A stretch of DNA of 46,024 bases, from IMG/VR virus record IMGVR_UViG_2718218133_000007; one strand, given 5' to 3'. Source of the DNA: a virus. Its lineage: Duplodnaviria > Heunggongvirae > Uroviricota > Caudoviricetes. Below are positions 33,472-41,915 of the stretch, in pieces. The notes below the pieces were generated by a model. The model ran no database searches. It saw only the letters and a program-made list of their open reading frames with translations, and was not told the origin of the DNA. Numbering within the stretch: the stretch's first letter is position 1; each line of letters starts with the position of its first letter. Position numbers and translations under genes: made by a program.

Positions 33472-33658
33472 GCTTCACCTCCGCAGAGGTCAAACGCTGG
33501 ATACAATATATCGCAGGTGCATTTCTGCATCTGTGGAGGGAGAAGAGAGTTTGGATTGTGTGTGCGCATAAACGTCCCCGTTTAGCGCAGAAGTCACCGG
33601 AGTTGTTCAGGCTCCGATGACATGATTATGGCGAGTTGATTATCGCAAATCAAAGGTT

Positions 33659-34476: not shown

Positions 34477-34800
34477 CTACTGTAATCGATCCGAACGTAA
34501 ATGCGGCAAAACTCGACTCCACTTATCATCCTGCCACGGCCGGAATTTTACATGTGCCGTTTCTCTGGCAAGGATTGCCTGTGCCTTATTGAGTATCTGG
34601 GGATATTCTTGCTCGATAGAAGTGAAGCGACCAGCTTCACGATGCTCCGCAACCTGAAGAAGAGGAGTAACGTTCTGGTAGGTAATTAACATCACATTCC
34701 CTGCTCGCCATAACCAGGCGAGTGTGCAAAGTTCGTTATCAGTGAATTGTTTTGTGATTGGGTATTGTTGAACTGCTAGAACGAGAACGCCAGCATCCAT
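34477..34800 (-). CDS. hypothetical protein (107 aa), no family recognised
   Basis: ORF downstream of ybcK on the same strand; no recognisable motifs. Confidence 0.4.
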   Translation of the reverse strand: MDAGVLVLAVQQYPITKQFTDNELCTLAWLWRAGNVMLITYQNVTPLLQVAEHREAGRFTSIEQEYPQILNKAQAILARETAHVKFRPWQDDKWSRVLPHLRSDRLQ

Positions 34801-34911
34801 TGGCAGTCTCTATAGTAAAACCATAGCTCAGGACGCTTCGTTCAGGATAGATAATTTTATTGTACTTACCTAACTTTCTTACTATAGCACGGTTGAAAAA
34901 GTGATTATTAC

Positions 34912-36438
34912 TCAAAAATAAACCTCACCATCAACCATATATTTGAGAGTACTTATCGCCTGCTGGGCGGATATTGTTTTCATTAAAGGATAGTGTTTAA
35001 AAACAATGCCATTCATAAAATAGATATCACAGGTTTTATTATCTGTATTGATTATGATTTTTTCGAATGTTTTATAGGCAAGTGTACGACATAGCTCTCG
35101 CCCATTTTTACTGGTTAAGTCAATAGCATGAAAATCACCAAGTGAACTCACCGCTTTACTCTTCAAAGTTTTTAATGATACAGAAGCCCTTCGTAATTCC
35201 TTATCTAATACTCTGATTTTTTCTGCTATAGCGGTAACTTCAGGCGCAACAGATAATGCAGCAATTAAATTATTAATTTTCATCTGGAGCTCAATAATTT
35301 TCAACTCTAAAGTTTCATTAGCATCTTTCTTGTTTTCAACTGGTTGGATTTTACTACAATTAAAAAGCAACTCATTAATGATATTATAATCAACCAAATC
35401 TCTCTTTATTGATGGCCTGTCACATCGATGCAGTCTTCTCATCGGACAAACATAATAGCCATGCAAACTTCCAGATACCGCATGAACAATCATGGTATTA
35501 CCACAAGCCTCGCACTTCATAACTGTTCGAAGTAGATTTATCAACATAGGATTTTTGCTACTATTGCTAATACCAAAAGGTGCCAACCGAATTTCCTGTA
35601 CAGCGTAAAACAAATCATCTGATATGACTCTGGGATAATAGCCAGCGATTTCACTTATTCCTTTACCTCTTGCACGATATGAAGGTACGCATATACCTAT
35701 CAGAGCTTTATTCGCTAATAATTTTTCAATTACAGAAGGTCCCCATGCACTTTCTTTTCCTGAGAAATTCTTTACAGCATGATCATTTAAATACTTGGCT
35801 ATTGCATTCAATGAGCGCCTTTCCATCCTGAGTTTAAAAATTAGCTCAATAGTTTTCACCCTGTCGGGGTCTGGAACAAAAGCCGTTCTTTTGTCATCTA
35901 AGGAGAGCCATCTCGGACAAGACGCCGTCATAATCGTACCTGATTCCAGTGCATCCTGCCGTTTTTTCTTCCATGATAATTTAACCCGACTTGACTTTAT
36001 CTCGCTTTCTTCATTTGCCCTTTGTGCTATAAGTATGGCTTTTATTAATGAATATGGCTCATTCAAAGAGTCAATATTATAGACTGTATTGTCGCAAAGA
36101 GTTATAACATCAATACCGTGATTCAAAATCAATTTCAGACGTTCAATCGCTTCACCGACTTTTTCTCTTGAAAGTCTGTCCAGACTTTCAACTAACAATG
36201 TAGTTCCTGGCAATATATAACCATGCTCTATAGCATCTAAAAATTCCGAAAAAGCTCCTGATTGTGCATGCTTTCCTTTGAATGCACTTAATCCTAAATC
36301 TTCATATGTTATGGTATCAAGATAATAATCACTATTTACCTTTAACCATTCAGCAATAAGTCTTCTCTGTCGGTTTAATGAGTCGCCAGACATCTGACCT
36401 GGTGATGAAAATCGCATATATGCTATGGCTTTTTTCAT
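34912..36438 (-). CDS. ybcK: large serine recombinase (resolvase/invertase-type N-terminal domain, recombinase domain, zinc ribbon, coiled coil), YbcK-like
   Basis: 508-aa ORF; N-terminal …AIAYMRFSSPGQ… with candidate catalytic Ser; Cys cluster CEACG…C…C; AT-rich; adjacent to emrE as in DLP12. Confidence 0.75.
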   Translation of the reverse strand: MKKAIAYMRFSSPGQMSGDSLNRQRRLIAEWLKVNSDYYLDTITYEDLGLSAFKGKHAQSGAFSEFLDAIEHGYILPGTTLLVESLDRLSREKVGEAIERLKLILNHGIDVITLCDNTVYNIDSLNEPYSLIKAILIAQRANEESEIKSSRVKLSWKKKRQDALESGTIMTASCPRWLSLDDKRTAFVPDPDRVKTIELIFKLRMERRSLNAIAKYLNDHAVKNFSGKESAWGPSVIEKLLANKALIGICVPSYRARGKGISEIAGYYPRVISDDLFYAVQEIRLAPFGISNSSKNPMLINLLRTVMKCEACGNTMIVHAVSGSLHGYYVCPMRRLHRCDRPSIKRDLVDYNIINELLFNCSKIQPVENKKDANETLELKIIELQMKINNLIAALSVAPEVTAIAEKIRVLDKELRRASVSLKTLKSKAVSSLGDFHAIDLTSKNGRELCRTLAYKTFEKIIINTDNKTCDIYFMNGIVFKHYPLMKTISAQQAISTLKYMVDGEVYF

Positions 36439-36694
36439 GGTGACACCTGCTAACGTATGCTTTTATAAACCTTAGTGGTGGGATATAATTTTTGTTTAAT
36501 TTTTATTTAAAAAGACAATTAAGGTCACATTATCTTGAATATACAACAATAATCGTATTGCAATTTTCTTACGCCATAATCTTGAAAGCACAAAAGAATA
36601 CATAAAAAAATAAAGACATTAACAAAAAGCATAAAACGAGGCTCATATAAATATAAGAGCCTCCATATTTTAGTCGTTTAGAAACAAATTATTT

Positions 36695-37027
36695 TTAATG
36701 TGGTGTGCTTCGTGACAATAAATTAATAACCAACACACCGGCACAAATCAACATCATGCCTATAATGGCTGGCAGGTCCAGCCGTTGGCCGAAAAGTCCC
36801 CATGACAGTAAGCTAATCAGGACAATACCGACTCCTGACCAGATAGCATAAGCAATCCCTGTAGGAATATAAGCCAGCGTCTGAGCTAATAACCAGAATG
36901 ATGCACAATAACAAATAATTGTACCAACAGATGGCCATAACCGTGTAAAACCTTCTGAAAACTTCATTAAGGTTGTACCAATGACCTCTGCAAGTATTGC
37001 ACCACCAAGATAAATATAAGGGTTCAT
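36695..37027 (-). CDS. emrE: small multidrug resistance efflux transporter EmrE
   Basis: 110 aa from MNPYIYLGGAILAEVIGTTLMKFSEGF… matches recalled EmrE; four TM segments; ORF track extends to 37081. Confidence 0.9.
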   Translation of the reverse strand: MNPYIYLGGAILAEVIGTTLMKFSEGFTRLWPSVGTIICYCASFWLLAQTLAYIPTGIAYAIWSGVGIVLISLLSWGLFGQRLDLPAIIGMMLICAGVLVINLLSRSTPH

Positions 37028-37094
37028 AGAATATTCTTTCCTGTTCAAACTGGAGAGAATTGTACTACAGTTTGAACTCAACTCACCTGTTTCA

Positions 37095-37397: not shown

Positions 37398-38095
37398 ACC
37401 CTTGCTCCTTTCAGCCCAAACTTAGCTTTGATTTCTGCGATCTTCGCCAGAGCCTGTGCACGATTTAGAGGTCTACCGCCCATGACAGGAAGTTGTTTTA
37501 CTGGTTCAGGTATAGCCTCACCACGGTTAATTCGTGCGGTCATACAGGACAGTTCATCGGCAGCCTTGCGCCGTAATTCCGCGTCAGTCAACGCATTGGC
37601 CCGCATGTTCTGATACAGGTTGGTAACCAGCCAGTAGTGCGCGTTTGATTTCCACGGATAAGACTCTGCATCCGGATACAGCCCGCGCTTCCGGCAATAC
37701 TCGTAAACCATATCAACCAGCTCGCTGGCGTTTGGCAGCCCGGCGGTAACGGATGCTTCTTCCCGGCACCAGGCGACAAACTGCCCGGGTGATGGCAGGA
37801 ATGGTCGATTCTGCCGACGGGCTACGCGCATTCCAGCGTTAACCTGTTCCATTGTGGTGATCCCGTTTTCCCGAAAAGCCAGCACCCACTGGCGGCGGAT
37901 TTCGTTCAGTTCATTCTGGTCACGGTTAGCCAGGCTCGCCGGGAAAGTTGCCAGTAACTGGCTGAACACACCGTTGATGATCTGCGCTACCTGCTGTACC
38001 TGCGGCTTTTCGTCGTACTGTTCCGGCATGTTGTTGGCGATCCGACGCATCTGCTCACGGTCAAAGTTAACCATCTGTGCGGCGATGTTTTTCAT
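37394..38095 (-). CDS. P: replication protein P (DnaB helicase loader)
   Basis: 233-aa ORF matching recalled lambda P. Confidence 0.9.
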   Translation of the reverse strand: MKNIAAQMVNFDREQMRRIANNMPEQYDEKPQVQQVAQIINGVFSQLLATFPASLANRDQNELNEIRRQWVLAFRENGITTMEQVNAGMRVARRQNRPFLPSPGQFVAWCREEASVTAGLPNASELVDMVYEYCRKRGLYPDAESYPWKSNAHYWLVTNLYQNMRANALTDAELRRKAADELSCMTARINRGEAIPEPVKQLPVMGGRPLNRAQALAKIAEIKAKFGLKGARV

Positions 38096-39111
38096 AAATC
38101 CACCCCGTAAATCCAGTCAGTGTTTGTCAGGTCGAGTTTTGGTTTGCTGGCTATCATGCCTGCCTGTTGCTTGTTACGGTTGATTTCGAGTTGGGTCCAC
38201 TTGTCGCGGAGTTTGGCCGGACTTAGCACGTTACCGGACCAGAAGTTGTCCTGGCATGCCCAGCGGAAAAGCACGCACATGTCGCGGTGGTTACGTCCGT
38301 CACGTTCACGCATCAGGCGGATATCGTTAGCCCACCCTGCAAAATTCGGTTTTCTGGCTGATGGTGCGATGGTCTTCACCATGTCAAACATCCACTCTGC
38401 GGCGGTCAGGTCTTCTGCTGTCCCCCACTTGCTGCCGCTCTGAATTGCAGCATCTGGTTTCACCACAGGAAGATCGTTTTCTGGTTGGTCAGAGGATTCG
38501 CCAGAATTCTCGGACGAAAAAGGTTTTATATTGTCTTTTGTTAGTTTGTCTTTTGTGTTTACCTGATTCGGGTAAACGCCTTTACCTGATTTGGGTAAAC
38601 TTTTCTTACCTGATTCAGGTAAATTTACCTCTTTCAGGTAAACTTTATTTTTCTTACCTGATTCGGGTAATGTTGACCATTCACTGACCACATTATTAAT
38701 ACCGATATTCCGCCCGCTCTGAATCAAAATCCCACGCTTTACCAGAACACTTTTTGCAGCAGAACACTTGTGCGGTAATATCCCGGTCAATCCGGACAGT
38801 TGCTCGTTGCTCACCCAATCCAGTTTTTTATTAAAGCCATATGTTTTGCGCATGACAGCCAGGAAGACCAGAAGCTGGTGCTGTGTTAATCCGGCCAGCA
38901 TCACAGCTTCCAGCAACTCATTTGCAATGCGCGTATAACCATCATCGAGATCTGCCACGCGCGGCTCCTTTTGTGCCGCATCCGGCACTGGAAAATTGAA
39001 TATCTCAGCAGTGTTTGCCATAATTCCTCCCGCAATGAGTGTGTTACGATTTGCACCTGAAAGTCGGTTCTGTTCCAGCAGACCGGCTTTCGCCATTTCT
39101 GAACCTGTCAT
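38092..39111 (-). CDS. O: replication initiator protein O (contains ori)
   Basis: N- and C-terminal regions resemble lambda O; iterons inside the gene; start codon uncertain (Met1, Met6 or Met31 of the track ORF). Confidence 0.85.
   Translation of the reverse strand: MTGSEMAKAGLLEQNRLSGANRNTLIAGGIMANTAEIFNFPVPDAAQKEPRVADLDDGYTRIANELLEAVMLAGLTQHQLLVFLAVMRKTYGFNKKLDWVSNEQLSGLTGILPHKCSAAKSVLVKRGILIQSGRNIGINNVVSEWSTLPESGKKNKVYLKEVNLPESGKKSLPKSGKGVYPNQVNTKDKLTKDNIKPFSSENSGESSDQPENDLPVVKPDAAIQSGSKWGTAEDLTAAEWMFDMVKTIAPSARKPNFAGWANDIRLMRERDGRNHRDMCVLFRWACQDNFWSGNVLSPAKLRDKWTQLEINRNKQQAGMIASKPKLDLTNTDWIYGVDL
38558..38672. repeat. origin iterons (4-5 copies of a ~19-20-bp unit tacctgattcgggtaaa-like) with adjacent AT-rich tract
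   Basis: tttacctgattcgggtaaac, tttacctgatttgggtaaac, cttacctgattcaggtaaat, ttacctctttcaggtaaac, cttacctgattcgggtaatg read directly; AT-rich segment at ~38520-38557. Confidence 0.8.
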
Positions 39112-39647
39112 ATCGCCCCCAGCATGGTAGTAACCATCGCCATCAATGGACCAGCCAGATCTGGGTCCACACGAAACATCGATACAATACCTTCACTAAT
39201 TTCCTTCAGTTTCTGGTGGCGTGGTGCGTTGAGAATGACAGCCTGTTTTGCCTCACTGAGTTCCTTTTCCATTTCAGCCAACCTGGCCATGAAGCTATCC
39301 TGCTCAACCAGGTAACCGCGATATTCCAGCGGTAGTACCGCCAGAATTGCCGGGGTCAGTTCACGCACGTTATTTCGGTATTTTTCAGAATCGAATTTGT
39401 TATCGAGGAAGCGGAACAGCTTCTGGCGTGCACGGCTGACATCATCAGGGAAATCGATGGTGCCGCCGCCCTGCTCCCGATACTCATTCACAATGAGTGT
39501 GGCAACGACATCCTGATTATCTACAGCCGACCAGGCGCGGACGGCATCACGGATTTTTTCGTGGCCTGGCACCTGTTTTGTTTGAGAACGATTTATCACC
39601 GCAGTCGGGCTAAATCCGCTAGTCTGTTGGTATGGAAGTGGTTGCAT
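39108..39647 (-). CDS. putative regulator occupying the cII position (not lambda-cII-like; possibly phage 186 CII / YdaT-like)
   Basis: 179-aa ORF directly after cro and nutR-like boxA, stop overlapping O start (ATGA); family assignment is a guess. Confidence 0.4.
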   Translation of the reverse strand: MQPLPYQQTSGFSPTAVINRSQTKQVPGHEKIRDAVRAWSAVDNQDVVATLIVNEYREQGGGTIDFPDDVSRARQKLFRFLDNKFDSEKYRNNVRELTPAILAVLPLEYRGYLVEQDSFMARLAEMEKELSEAKQAVILNAPRHQKLKEISEGIVSMFRVDPDLAGPLMAMVTTMLGAI

Positions 39648-39691
39648 AATTGACTCCTTTAGTTTGAATTGACTGTTAAGTTGATTGCTTA

Positions 39692-39704
39692 TTGTTAAAG
39701 AGCG
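39692..39704 (-). promoter_or_regulatory. boxA-like element (CGCTCTTTAACAA) in the cro-proximal rightward transcript (nutR-like)
   Basis: + strand ttgttaaagagcg; lies between cro stop and the next gene; no convincing boxB hairpin identified. Confidence 0.45.
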
Positions 39705-39716
39705 TGAAATGGAAAT

Positions 39717-39947
39717 TTAAGCTGCGTTCTTTTCGGTGTGTGGAAACAACTTCGGAAGATCCGGGCGAATCTGGTATGCCTTCACTACTCCACCAGTAGC
39801 CGTAACAATGCTGCCGACATGTTCAGGGGATACCTTTGCTTTGTTGTGAAGCCACTTATAGACGGCCTGCTGTGAAACTTCGCAAGCAGCGCCCAGTTTC
39901 TTTTGTGAACCAACGATATTGATCGCTGTTTTGATAGCTGGGTTCAT
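39717..39947 (-). CDS. cro: Cro-like repressor (HTH)
   Basis: 76-aa ORF with HTH (…QKKLGAACEVSQQAVYKWLH…), divergent from cI, first gene of rightward operon. Confidence 0.75.
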   Translation of the reverse strand: MNPAIKTAINIVGSQKKLGAACEVSQQAVYKWLHNKAKVSPEHVGSIVTATGGVVKAYQIRPDLPKLFPHTEKNAA

Positions 39948-40051
39948 AACAACCTCCGTGGTTAATTTGAATCAAGATTAAAACTATGGTTGTTTTTAGT
40001 CAACAACCATTTTCGTTTGATGGAATAAAACCTTGGTTGTACATTTGGACT
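39948..40051. promoter_or_regulatory. OR-like operator/promoter region between cro and cI (PR/PRM)
   Basis: Repeated ACAACC / GGTTGT half-sites in inverted arrangement (e.g. atggttgtttttagtcaacaaccat) in the divergent intergenic region. Confidence 0.6.
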
Positions 40052-40741
40052 ATGAAAACAACACTCTCAGAAAGACTTAAAGAAGCCAGATTAGCGCGAG
40101 GCCTTACACAAAAGGCGCTTGGGGATTTGGTCGGGGTTAGCCAGGCTGCTATTCAGAAAATCGAAACAGGGAAAGCTAATCAAACAACTAAAATCGTGGA
40201 GATCGCGAACGCTTTGGGTGTGCGCGCAGAATGGTTATCTTCTGGCGTTGGAAATATGTCAGACAGTACAGTGCAACCAATACAATCAACTGTCAGCCAT
40301 TCCAAATACTTCAAGATTGACGTTCTTGATATAGAAGTCAGTGCTGGGCCGGGAGTCATCAACCGTGAGTTTGTAGAAGTTCTACGCTCGGTTGAGTACT
40401 CGTTTGACGATGCTCGTCACATGTTCGATGGTAGGAAGGCGGAAAATATCCGCATCATTAACGTGCGTGGTGACAGCATGTCAGGAACGATCGAACCAGG
40501 TGATCTGCTGTTCGTTGATATCACAGTTAAATCTTTCGACGGTGATGGTATCTATGCGTTTCTGTACGACGACACAGCCCATGTAAAGCGCCTGCAAATG
40601 ATGAAGGATAAGCTGCTGGTCATCTCTGATAACAAAAGCTACTCACCGTGGGACCCGATCGAGAAAGACGAGATGAACCGGGTGTTCATCTTCGGTAAGG
40701 TTATTGGGAGCATGCCGCAGACATATAGGAAGCATGGGTAG
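40052..40741 (+). CDS. cI: CI-type prophage repressor (N-terminal HTH, C-terminal LexA/S24-like autocleavage domain)
   Basis: MKTTLSERLKEARLARGLTQKALGDLVGVSQAAIQKIETGK… HTH; C-terminal GDSM…KRL Ser/Lys dyad; start placed at Met23 of the track ORF (39986). Confidence 0.85.
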   Translation: MKTTLSERLKEARLARGLTQKALGDLVGVSQAAIQKIETGKANQTTKIVEIANALGVRAEWLSSGVGNMSDSTVQPIQSTVSHSKYFKIDVLDIEVSAGPGVINREFVEVLRSVEYSFDDARHMFDGRKAENIRIINVRGDSMSGTIEPGDLLFVDITVKSFDGDGIYAFLYDDTAHVKRLQMMKDKLLVISDNKSYSPWDPIEKDEMNRVFIFGKVIGSMPQTYRKHG

Positions 40742-40863
40742 TACCAATTAAAAATTATCAACTGGGCATTGTGCTCATTCAGTAAAGAACTAATTCCTAT
40801 CTTTGCTCTAGGTAGTAATATTAAGCCACCGCAATAATATCTTTACCTAACGGCGTAAGAATC

Positions 40864-40889
40864 CCGGTCACCGTGCCGGGTTTTCTTTT
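40864..40889 (+). terminator. intrinsic terminator downstream of cI
   Basis: cccgg-tcaccgtg-ccggg followed by ttttctttt. Confidence 0.55.
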
Positions 40890-40979
40890 GCCCTCCCCTC
40901 ATCACACACACCGTTAAAAAAACCACCATAACCTCGCTTCAGTTATCGCTATGCGATTCAAGTCACAAAATAAATCCAT

Positions 40980-41060
40980 CCTAAATACAACCAGTTATAT
41001 CTAAAACAACCAATAAAACAACTTTTGTTGTTGACGATAAAACAACTATAGTTTTAAATA
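40980..41060 (+). promoter_or_regulatory. OL/pL-like region: ACAAC/GTTGT operator repeats with candidate -35 TTGACG and -10 TAAATA (18-bp spacer)
   Basis: aacaacttttgttgttgacg…(18 bp)…taaata; same half-site family as the OR region. Confidence 0.5.
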
Positions 41061-41335
41061 AGTTCATCGCAACAACACAACGATACGGCAACTACCTGAT
41101 TCACCGTTGCGATGACCGCTTAGATCCGCAGTTTGAATTTCAGCAGGCTTCGGGGAGTGCGAGGGGTGAAACGGACGCGTGAACGTCGGTGTGACCAGCT
41201 GAAATTAACTCAACATTTCATACCTCAGTCGCTTCAACGAGGCGGCTTAGTTATGACAACCGGCGGCCATCCACCGCCTGAATATGCGCAGAAGTCTCTA
41301 TATGTTCAGCAGCCCAGCTTACGGGCGGAGTTTTT

Positions 41336-41542
41336 ATGGTTCATCAACATTACGGAACACAGACCGTTAATCGCGGCGCGGTCATGCCAGGAATGCTGGT
41401 CAAACACAAAGATGGTACCTGGACTGCATCAGCTAATTTACGCGGACGGCTTTATCTGCATCGCGGCATCGAGCGCACTTATACCAGTGATTTGCTCGTG
41501 GAAGTTTTTCTCGACGGACGCGGTAACGGCCTGAATCACTAA
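41336..41542 (+). CDS. hypothetical small protein (68 aa) immediately upstream of gam
   Basis: Good RBS (ggcggag-N5-ATG); natural-looking composition; occupies the kil/cIII position. Confidence 0.45.
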   Translation: MVHQHYGTQTVNRGAVMPGMLVKHKDGTWTASANLRGRLYLHRGIERTYTSDLLVEVFLDGRGNGLNH

Positions 41543-41618
41543 CCCCCCTTTCCTGTTTTCCTAATCAGCCTGGCATTTCGCGGGCGATATTTTCACAGCC
41601 ATTTTCAGGAGTTCAGCC

Positions 41619-41915
41619 ATGAACGCTTATTACATTCAGGATCGTCTTGAGGCTCAGAGCTGGGCGCGTCACTACCAGCAGCTCGCCCGTGAAGAGAAAG
41701 AGGCAGAACTGGCAGACGACATGGAAAAAGGTCTGCCCCAGCACCTGTTTGAATCACTCTGCATCGATCATTTACAACGCCACGGGGCCAGCAAAAAAGC
41801 CATTACCCGTGCGTTTGATGACGATGTTGAGTTTCAGGAGCGCATGGCAGAACACATCCGGTACATGGTTGAAACCATTGCTCACCACCAGGTTGATATT
41901 GATTCAGAGGTATAA
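41619..41915 (+). CDS. gam: Gam (RecBCD inhibitor), short form
   Basis: 98-aa [34 protein letters not shown]… matches recalled lambda GamS; in-frame stop upstream excludes the long form. Confidence 0.9.

Follow-up and report, generated by a model that had tools for sequence, protein, structure and literature searches.

YdaS and YdaT were once predicted to form a toxin-antitoxin pair, a prediction that their Pfam names keep (PMC5917428), and they were recognised as counterparts of Cro and CII by Casjens in 2003, with Jobling arguing likewise in 2018 (PMC5917428). The YdaT of CP-933P is non-toxic and activates PRE933P, a promoter that lies between ydaS and ydaT and reads toward the repressor operon (PMC8630535), and the YdaT crystal structure presents a POU-like helix-turn-helix (HTH) domain and a tetramer held by an antiparallel four-helix bundle, with TTGATT-N6-AATCAA as the operator (PMC9986795). 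The YdaT of Rac binds ATGATT-CATGAA-AATCAA over its own start codon, and with this box leftward transcription toward racR goes up 29-fold; the same protein cross-reacts with the CP-933P box despite an identity of 30% and acts also on the promoter of the host gene rcsA (PMC11879457). Here we describe the member of this family that fills the cII position in IMG/VR record IMGVR_UViG_2718218133_000007, a Caudoviricetes sequence of 46,024 nucleotides (nt), the whole of which is called the window below, and in which a protein of 179 amino acids (aa) stands where lambda encodes its CII of 97 aa.

We are highly confident that this gene encodes a phi80-type CII, i.e., a YdaT-family HTH transcription factor that takes the place of lambda CII in a large number of lambdoid phages. 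CP-933P YdaT had already been recognised as homologous to phi80 CII in the mBio paper on the family, so that the window adds one more copy of something already known, namely of a very common protein. At 94-100% nucleotide identity the gene is found in 16 phage records, where it is mostly annotated as cII or CII-like and in two cases as 'hypothetical', and of 5426 complete E. coli genomes 2213 (~40%) carry it, the product being named there by RefSeq as 'toxin YdaT domain-containing protein'. Homologs of 179-180 aa are found across the Enterobacteriaceae, and the family, when clustered at 50%, amounts to 110 detectable clusters.

Family identity and predicted fold

A sequence-only reading of the window had placed a 179-aa protein right after cro and a boxA-like element and described it as unlike lambda CII. 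The open reading frame (ORF) and the boxA are exact, and the spacer between the cro stop and the ORF is 69 nt. The unlikeness is borne out too, as the protein has no Pfam Phage_CII match at E<0.1 and no detectable sequence similarity to lambda CII. Nor was a canonical cII found elsewhere in the window, where tblastn with lambda CII as the query gave chance matches only (best E=0.45). The ORF is a genuine coding sequence, with 705 homologs at E<=1e-3, and amino-acid conservation in the homolog alignments extends over its full length.

The profile search proposed with that reading matched Pfam YdaT_toxin (PF06254) at E=8.5e-30, with 103.5 bits against a cut-off of 21, and in PHROG the protein matches phrog_163, 'CII-like transcriptional activator', at E=3.9e-67 over residues 17-179 (163 residues); NCBIfam has no model matching it. 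The protein is 66% identical to phi80 CII (PHI80_49, JX871397; cII of X13065) over the full length of the two, 179 against 180 aa with one gap (E=1e-92), 67% identical to the CII of mEp237 and 52% to those of HK225 and HK639. Identity to Rac YdaT is 35% over the HTH domain (E=3e-12), and a sequence search of the PDB gave the YdaT structures 8bt1 and 3c4r only, weakly (E about 0.002-0.004). All close homologs are YdaT-family proteins. The slot is also the one expected of the family, i.e., after a Cro/YdaS-type gene, divergent from the repressor gene and before the replication genes. So much for the YdaT half of the earlier suggestion of a 'phage-186-CII/YdaT-type' regulator, which stands on PF06254, phrog_163, phi80 CII and the fold.

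The motif QKLFRFLD of the recognition helix resembles the QKIFRWLD of CP-933P YdaT. Within it, 41 diverse relatives keep F78 and R79 almost without exception, and R79, which aligns with the arginine of the CP-933P motif, is invariant in 24 closer relatives; according to the structural paper, this arginine is the only fully conserved residue of the recognition helix (PMC9986795). An AlphaFold model of the monomer, built on the 41 diverse relatives, has a mean pLDDT of 85.6. In this model, residues 1-24 are disordered and residues 29-113 make up the HTH domain, where a loop of 11 residues precedes the recognition helix (residues 70-82, VSRARQKLFRFLD); helices run at 29-43, 45-58, 70-82, 88-104, 107-113 and 119-138, the last of which is long and is followed by two further C-terminal helices. 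A Foldseek search of the PDB returned chains of 8bt1 and 3c4r (six listed) at a probability of 1.00, with TM scores of 0.69-0.72 (target-normalised) and an rmsd of 3.3-3.8 A, and the predicted fold agrees with that of the YdaT family.

With phi80 CII the protein shares its N-terminal extension, its C-terminal helices and its slot between the cro analog and the O analog; the immunity, on the other hand, is different, the cI, cro and operators of the window being unrelated to those of phi80. The YdaT proteins of CP-933P (8bt1, 3c4r) and Rac (b1358) share with it the Pfam family, the predicted fold, the slot after YdaS, the POU-like HTH, the long loop before the recognition helix, the long helix and the motif QK(I/L)FR(W/F)LD, whilst being only 26-35% identical to it. 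In comparison with them, it has about 27 additional N-terminal residues, predicted to be disordered, and about 40 additional C-terminal ones in two helices. The likeness to lambda CII is one of place and job: the position in the pR operon, the proposed function, an HTH tetramer (by analogy, in the case of the window protein), an activated promoter that overlaps the start of the activator gene (putatively so here) and an oop-type RNA adjoining the gene. Lambda CII differs in length, in fold and in symmetry, as its site is a direct repeat (TTGC-N6-TTGC), whereas that of YdaT is an inverted one (PMC9986795), and no cIII partner was seen in the window.

After infection, the gene would be transcribed from pR, after cro, and the CII protein, probably as a tetramer, would bind a dyad-symmetric operator of the TTGATT-N6-AATCAA kind; once bound, it would switch on a leftward promoter reading back through cro into the repressor gene, and lysogeny would be established in this way. 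Family membership, fold, synteny and wide distribution are results of the present analysis; DNA binding, tetramer formation and leftward activation are carried over from the experiments on Rac and CP-933P YdaT. The earlier statement that such a protein would alter the lysis-lysogeny circuitry is overstated, given that two homologs do the job of CII (PMC8630535, PMC11879457): the logic is kept and the protein replaced.

Candidate operators and the role of the protein

The place of action of the protein had been suggested to be a pE-like promoter, with direct-repeat sites, on the antisense strand of cro, and none was found there: one two-copy family of 12-nt repeats (39844 and 39903; 83% alike) came up, which is typical of chance and was not pursued. 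The best candidate is a dyad within the gene's own codons 1-22 (Table 1). Its 18-mer, TTGAGA-ACGATT-TATCAC, occupies sense positions +66 to +49 (in antisense reading) and is box-like in every subgroup of relatives; three Citrobacter loci have TTGATT-GCGATT-TATCAT, which matches the consensus at 10/12 positions, and one Trabulsiella locus has CTGATT-TTCAAA-AATCAA, which matches it at 11/12. The GA and ATCA core of this intragenic box is invariant in 35/35 relatives, and so is a TAnnnT hexamer 20 nt downstream of it in the antisense direction, whose T and A fall on third and first codon positions and are fixed while the amino acids vary. On standard promoter geometry, transcription is predicted to start near 39632 (+), which would put the centre of the operator at -41.5, and no -35 is recognisable.

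The conservation of this stretch is at the level of DNA rather than of protein. Between pairs of sequences, synonymous differences come to 0.27 in codons 1-22 and 0.475 in the rest of the gene, the former being the lowest value among all 22-codon windows, whereas amino-acid divergence is higher in codons 1-22 (0.48) than in the rest (0.35). Ser3 is TCA in 34/35 sequences, Leu4 is CTT in 37/41, Ala16 is GCG in 27/28 and Ile18 is the rare ATA in 32/42; four-fold sites deeper in the gene are free. The intragenic box and its -10 are also found in phi80. The Rac box overlaps the ydaT start codon; in the window, 48 nt of reading frame precede the box, which is therefore coding. The footprinted Rac box has a TATGAT exactly 20 nt further on the racR-directed strand, at the 3′ end of ydaS (1152-1195 of the E. 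coli K-12 Rac locus used), and this spacing is independent support for the layout of box and -10. Rac box and TATGAT would form a box-proximal class-II promoter; the published activated promoter is ~190 bp away. We infer from these patterns an activator-dependent promoter that would be laid over the disordered N-terminal extension and would point through cro toward cI, as lambda pRE overlaps the start of cII.

No exact YdaT box exists in the immunity region, where the cro-to-gene and cI-cro regions give matches with 2-3 mismatches only (39681-39698 and 39958-39975), and the 38 box matches in total do not stand out clearly from chance, with 27 expected and as many as 38 in 4 of 100 shuffles. 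A sigma-70 consensus scan found no leftward promoter near the start of cII/ydaT, as expected if the -35 is absent, and found the pO-like promoter of the next section instead. A weight matrix for the intragenic box, built without the window and inflated by the homology of the coding spacer, scored highest at 39581-39600 (24.1) and gave no second site, the next score (13.0) being in the range of shuffles.

A perfect palindrome of the published operator, the sole perfect YdaT box in the window, lies elsewhere, ~165 bp upstream of ninB; a looser search of the window for the core TTGA-N9-ATCA returned only this site and the intragenic one. The box sits at the edge of a 183-bp block 5′ of ninB that is conserved whatever the cargo upstream, and overlaps the -35 of a conserved putative rightward promoter, whose two hexamers the record of phage 82 gives as putative -35 (TTGATT) and putative -10 (CATAAT). 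The half-sites are TTGATT and AATCAA in the window (spacer ATCGCA), in phage 82 and PhiR34_1 (TCCCAA) and in HK639 and CobraSix (CCAGAA), TTGATA and AATCAA in KO-TP1 (AAGGAA), and TTGATA and TATCAA in phi80 and HK225 (AAACAC). In other words, the half-sites are kept whilst the 6-nt spacer varies, and CATAAT follows 5 nt after the box in all of these phages. A phi80-type cII is present in every one of them in which the gene could be checked, and lambda, with its lambda-type cII, has no such box before ninB. The distribution of the box over heteroimmune phages argues against CI or Cro as its binder. The box spans about -35 to -18, i.e., a repressing position, and the site may be a second, repressive target of CII.

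Just downstream of the ninB-proximal promoter is an imperfect palindrome (GCGCATAAACG-TCCCC-GTTTAGCGC, 33564-33588) that the phage 82 record calls a 'possible regulator-binding site' and that is annotated as IR4 in phi80, which has a palindrome-plus-promoter upstream of ninB as well. Its arms vary in a compensatory manner between phage groups (TAAACG/CGTTTA vs TTTAAG/CTTAAA), a pattern that may reflect a hairpin in a leader RNA or a site for a protein.

Taken jointly, the two candidate sites would make up a phi80-type CII regulon, with a class-II pRE-like promoter over codons 1-22 (box at -41.5, invariant -10, and an N-terminal tail encoded by promoter DNA) and a repressive operator before ninB. 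We put this forward as a tentative proposal, less probable than not.

Several points weigh against the CII-like activator and its promoter as described here. The box of the window matches the consensus at only 8/12 positions, and a search allowing three mismatches misses the intragenic box altogether. The published activated promoters lie elsewhere, at the above distance of ~190 bp from the box in Rac and upstream of the box in CP-933P. A constraint on translation initiation or on mRNA structure could explain part of the synonymous suppression, and the evidence on the window's own protein and on the operator of its subfamily is computational only. The oligomeric state could differ from that of CP-933P YdaT, since the model has a shorter central helix and two extra C-terminal helices. 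Finally, as far as the account of Rac goes (PMC11879457), Rac YdaT regulates host genes and is toxic when over-expressed, by analogy with which CII-like activity may not be the only role of the protein.

In the most probable of the competing readings, the YdaT-family protein would be mainly a repressor or roadblock (e.g., at the ninB box), or a regulator of host genes, and lysogeny would be established independently of it. The structural paper calls YdaT a repressor with a single strong site (PMC9986795), and Rac YdaT binds the ydaS promoter region in addition to that of the host rcsA (PMC11879457); in the window, likewise, the sole perfect box overlaps the -35 and spacer of a promoter, as a repressor site would, and the intragenic box is a weak match. 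The two homologs that have been studied, however, both drive transcription leftward, to the repressor gene (PMC8630535, PMC11879457), the original record of phi80 names cII as a lysogeny gene, and activation fits the constant spacing between the intragenic box and its invariant -10, which is seen in 35/35 relatives and in Rac. We consider this reading unlikely, and a repressor role and CII-like activation are, in any case, not mutually exclusive.

Less probable still is that the protein is the toxin of a YdaS/YdaT toxin-antitoxin pair, with the Cro-like gene as antitoxin. The names YdaT_toxin and YdaS_toxin in Pfam, echoed in the RefSeq product name, invite this interpretation, but they come from a prediction of 2007 that was not borne out (PMC5917428), and CP-933P YdaT is without toxicity, YdaS and YdaT having been shown not to be such a pair (PMC8630535); for CP-933P, harmlessness at natural levels and a lack of neutralisation through direct binding by the Cro-like protein have already been reported. 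Over-expressed Rac YdaT leads to filamentation and death in what the account of that prophage reports (PMC11879457), yet lambda CII is also toxic when over-produced and is no toxin (PMC5917428). The predicted fold of the window protein is, moreover, a DNA-binding HTH domain, and its gene lies within a complete lambdoid immunity-replication module of viable phages. A CII of the phage-186 type (Phage_CP76), which would bind direct half-sites flanking a -35, agrees with the protein in genomic position and comparable size only (186 CII has 169 aa) and, already refuted by sequence and by predicted fold, has a negligible probability, with no Phage_CP76 match at E<0.1 against 8.5e-30 for YdaT, close homologs that are all of the YdaT family, and 6vpe, the sole 186 regulator structure of the fold search, as next Foldseek match at E=0.99 and TM 0.23-0.29, nothing besides YdaT having a lower E.

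The start of O and the antisense RNA before it

The sequence-only reading also had the gene coupled in translation to O by an ATGA overlap. The overlapping bases are there (39111-39108), and public annotation, in RefSeq and in the phage records, starts O at them, for a product of 339 aa. The coupling is another matter. The true start of O is probably ATG 39021, 90 nt downstream of the annotated one, and the ATGA overlap an artefact of ORF calling, because of four things: the extent of the O profiles, the GGGAGG before this ATG, the related loci, and the spacer being itself an RNA gene. The match of the long ORF to the O profiles sets in at residue 31, phrog_277 aligning residues 31-338 onto its positions 1-317 and phrog_2365 residues 31-246 onto 1-232, and residue 31 is the very ATG at 39021, which is preceded by GGGAGGAATT. 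In the related loci, the start of the replication gene, where found among 32 of them, is ~54-152 nt 3′ of the ydaT stop, and it is 85-92 nt after this stop in 23/24 loci with the standard spacer; many O-type genes begin with M(S/T/A)NTAE. Several related ydaT genes also end in ATGA, and the frame reaches the next gene only in the lineage of the window.

Between the two genes, on the opposite strand, lies a predicted small RNA with two hairpins and a T run, for which the phi80 genome record has, at the same place, 'M3 RNA, homolog of lambda oop RNA'. Its 5′ hairpin would pair 39032-39035 with 39051-39054, and its terminator hairpin (39059-39091) is followed by GCC ATTTCTG. The CAT of its pO-like promoter is the complement of the O start codon, and in the related loci a TGn-CATAAT promoter overlaps the start codon of whichever replication gene follows. 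Compensatory changes are seen in 10/17 predicted pairs (24 loci), numerous G-U pairs fit the antisense strand only, and the antisense RNA folds at -24.1 kcal/mol (z=-2.8). Rfam at its gathering thresholds has no match anywhere in the window, and at relaxed settings gives only a full-length, sub-threshold match of the antisense RNA to STnc450 (15.8 bits, where the gathering score is 37).

The M3/oop-type RNA is unannotated in the related records examined, and the 30 extra codons of the annotated O (39022-39111) cross its gene. An O start at 39021 and a structured antisense RNA in the spacer make translational coupling to O unlikely. Phi80 resembles the window in having a spacer of ~85-88 nt with an M3/oop antisense RNA, the M3-like RNA of the window being another allele of the terminator hairpin. 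Rac, in contrast, is without this spacer, and ydaU follows its ydaT at 12 nt. Unlike lambda oop, the predicted RNA ends just short of the cII stop codon.

Locus, neighbouring genes and significance

The window is a lambda-like prophage or phage in inverted orientation, with the phages Turner, PhiR34_1 and Perceval among its relatives. The genes are ordered cI, cro/ydaS, cII/ydaT, O, P, a Ren-like gene, emrE and the ybcK recombinase, the CI-type repressor gene being divergent from the cro analog. The same start of cII/ydaT is preceded by good Shine-Dalgarno sequences in related loci, too.

Table 1. Features of the immunity-replication region and of the region before ninB, in window coordinates
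Feature	Coordinates	Strand	Remarks
Putative rightward promoter -10, CATAAT	33625-33630	-	YdaT box overlaps its -35; TTGATT, 17 nt, CATAAT at 33653-33625
Perfect YdaT-box palindrome, TTGATT-ATCGCA-AATCAA	33636..33653	.	sole perfect box in the window; ~165 bp upstream of ninB
O (replication initiator), extent from the probable true start	38092..39021	-	309 aa; ATG 39021 after GGGAGG
pO-like promoter of the antisense RNA	38996..39024	+	TTGAAT, 17 nt, TG-n-CATAAT
Predicted antisense small RNA, phi80 M3 RNA/lambda oop homolog	39031..39101	+	two hairpins, T run
phi80-type cII gene (YdaT family)	39108..39647	-	179 aa, stop codon included
Candidate CII/YdaT operator	39582..39599	.	codons 17-22; + strand TTGAGA-ACGATT-TATCAC, 8/12 to TTGATT-N6-AATCAA
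Candidate -10 of pRE-like promoter toward cI, TAGTCT	39620..39625	+	TAnnnT in the same register in 35/35 relatives
Shine-Dalgarno of cII/ydaT, AAGGAG	39654..39659	-	6 nt 5′ of ATG 39647-39645
boxA, CGCTCTTTAACAA	39692..39704	-	cro-cII spacer (nutR position); sole exact copy in the window
Cro analog (YdaS family)	39717..39947	-	76 aa; Pfam YdaS E=4e-17, P22_Cro E=8e-5
CI-type repressor (HTH + S24 peptidase)	40052..40741	+	start per RefSeq annotation; longest ORF begins at 39986

No boxB hairpin was seen by eye 3′ of the boxA in the 69-nt cro-cII spacer, on which folding was not run. The window has a single consensus boxA at the nutR position, without a second copy near pL. Neither an N-like gene nor cIII was found in 40742-41620 (cI to gam) or in 39648-39716, the former holding kil only, whereas phi80 has an N gene. 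Beyond the cI terminator come a pL-like promoter at ~41030-41065, a leader of ~270 nt, kil (41336-41542, phrog_294), gam and bet. Among 50 related loci, the 130 nt upstream of the ydaT-like gene, with the cro-to-cII spacer, are highly mosaic: a full lambda nutR (boxA + GCCCTGAAAAAGGGC) occurs in one locus, boxA by itself in two, and a GC hairpin, GCCGCTTAACGGCGGC, in many. The coding 5′ end of the ydaT-like gene is kept throughout in spite of this mosaic.

A cargo region at 34477-37081 (-), between ren and the nin region, holds emrE, which codes for an SMR efflux pump, ybcK, which codes for a large serine recombinase, and a pair of small ORFs, one of 107 aa (phrog_7640, with weak similarity to the C-terminus of Ant) and one of 118 aa (phrog_12412, of unknown function in PHROG). 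These genes stand where PhiR34_1 has ybcL/ybcM.

As found, the protein is of little significance in itself, since alternatives to lambda CII of this kind are very common and have been characterised before. Its RefSeq name, 'toxin YdaT domain-containing protein', misleads, and 'phi80-type CII' would be more accurate. In this phage group the annotated O probably includes 30 codons too many, which run over an unannotated M3/oop RNA gene. If the repressive operator before ninB is real, binding of CII there would hold back nin and Q, and would be the counterpart, by repression, of the CII-dependent paQ of lambda. The two putative operator sites offer a cheap and testable handle on the wiring of the lysis-lysogeny decision by a non-lambda CII, in a phage group present in ~40% of complete E. 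coli genomes.

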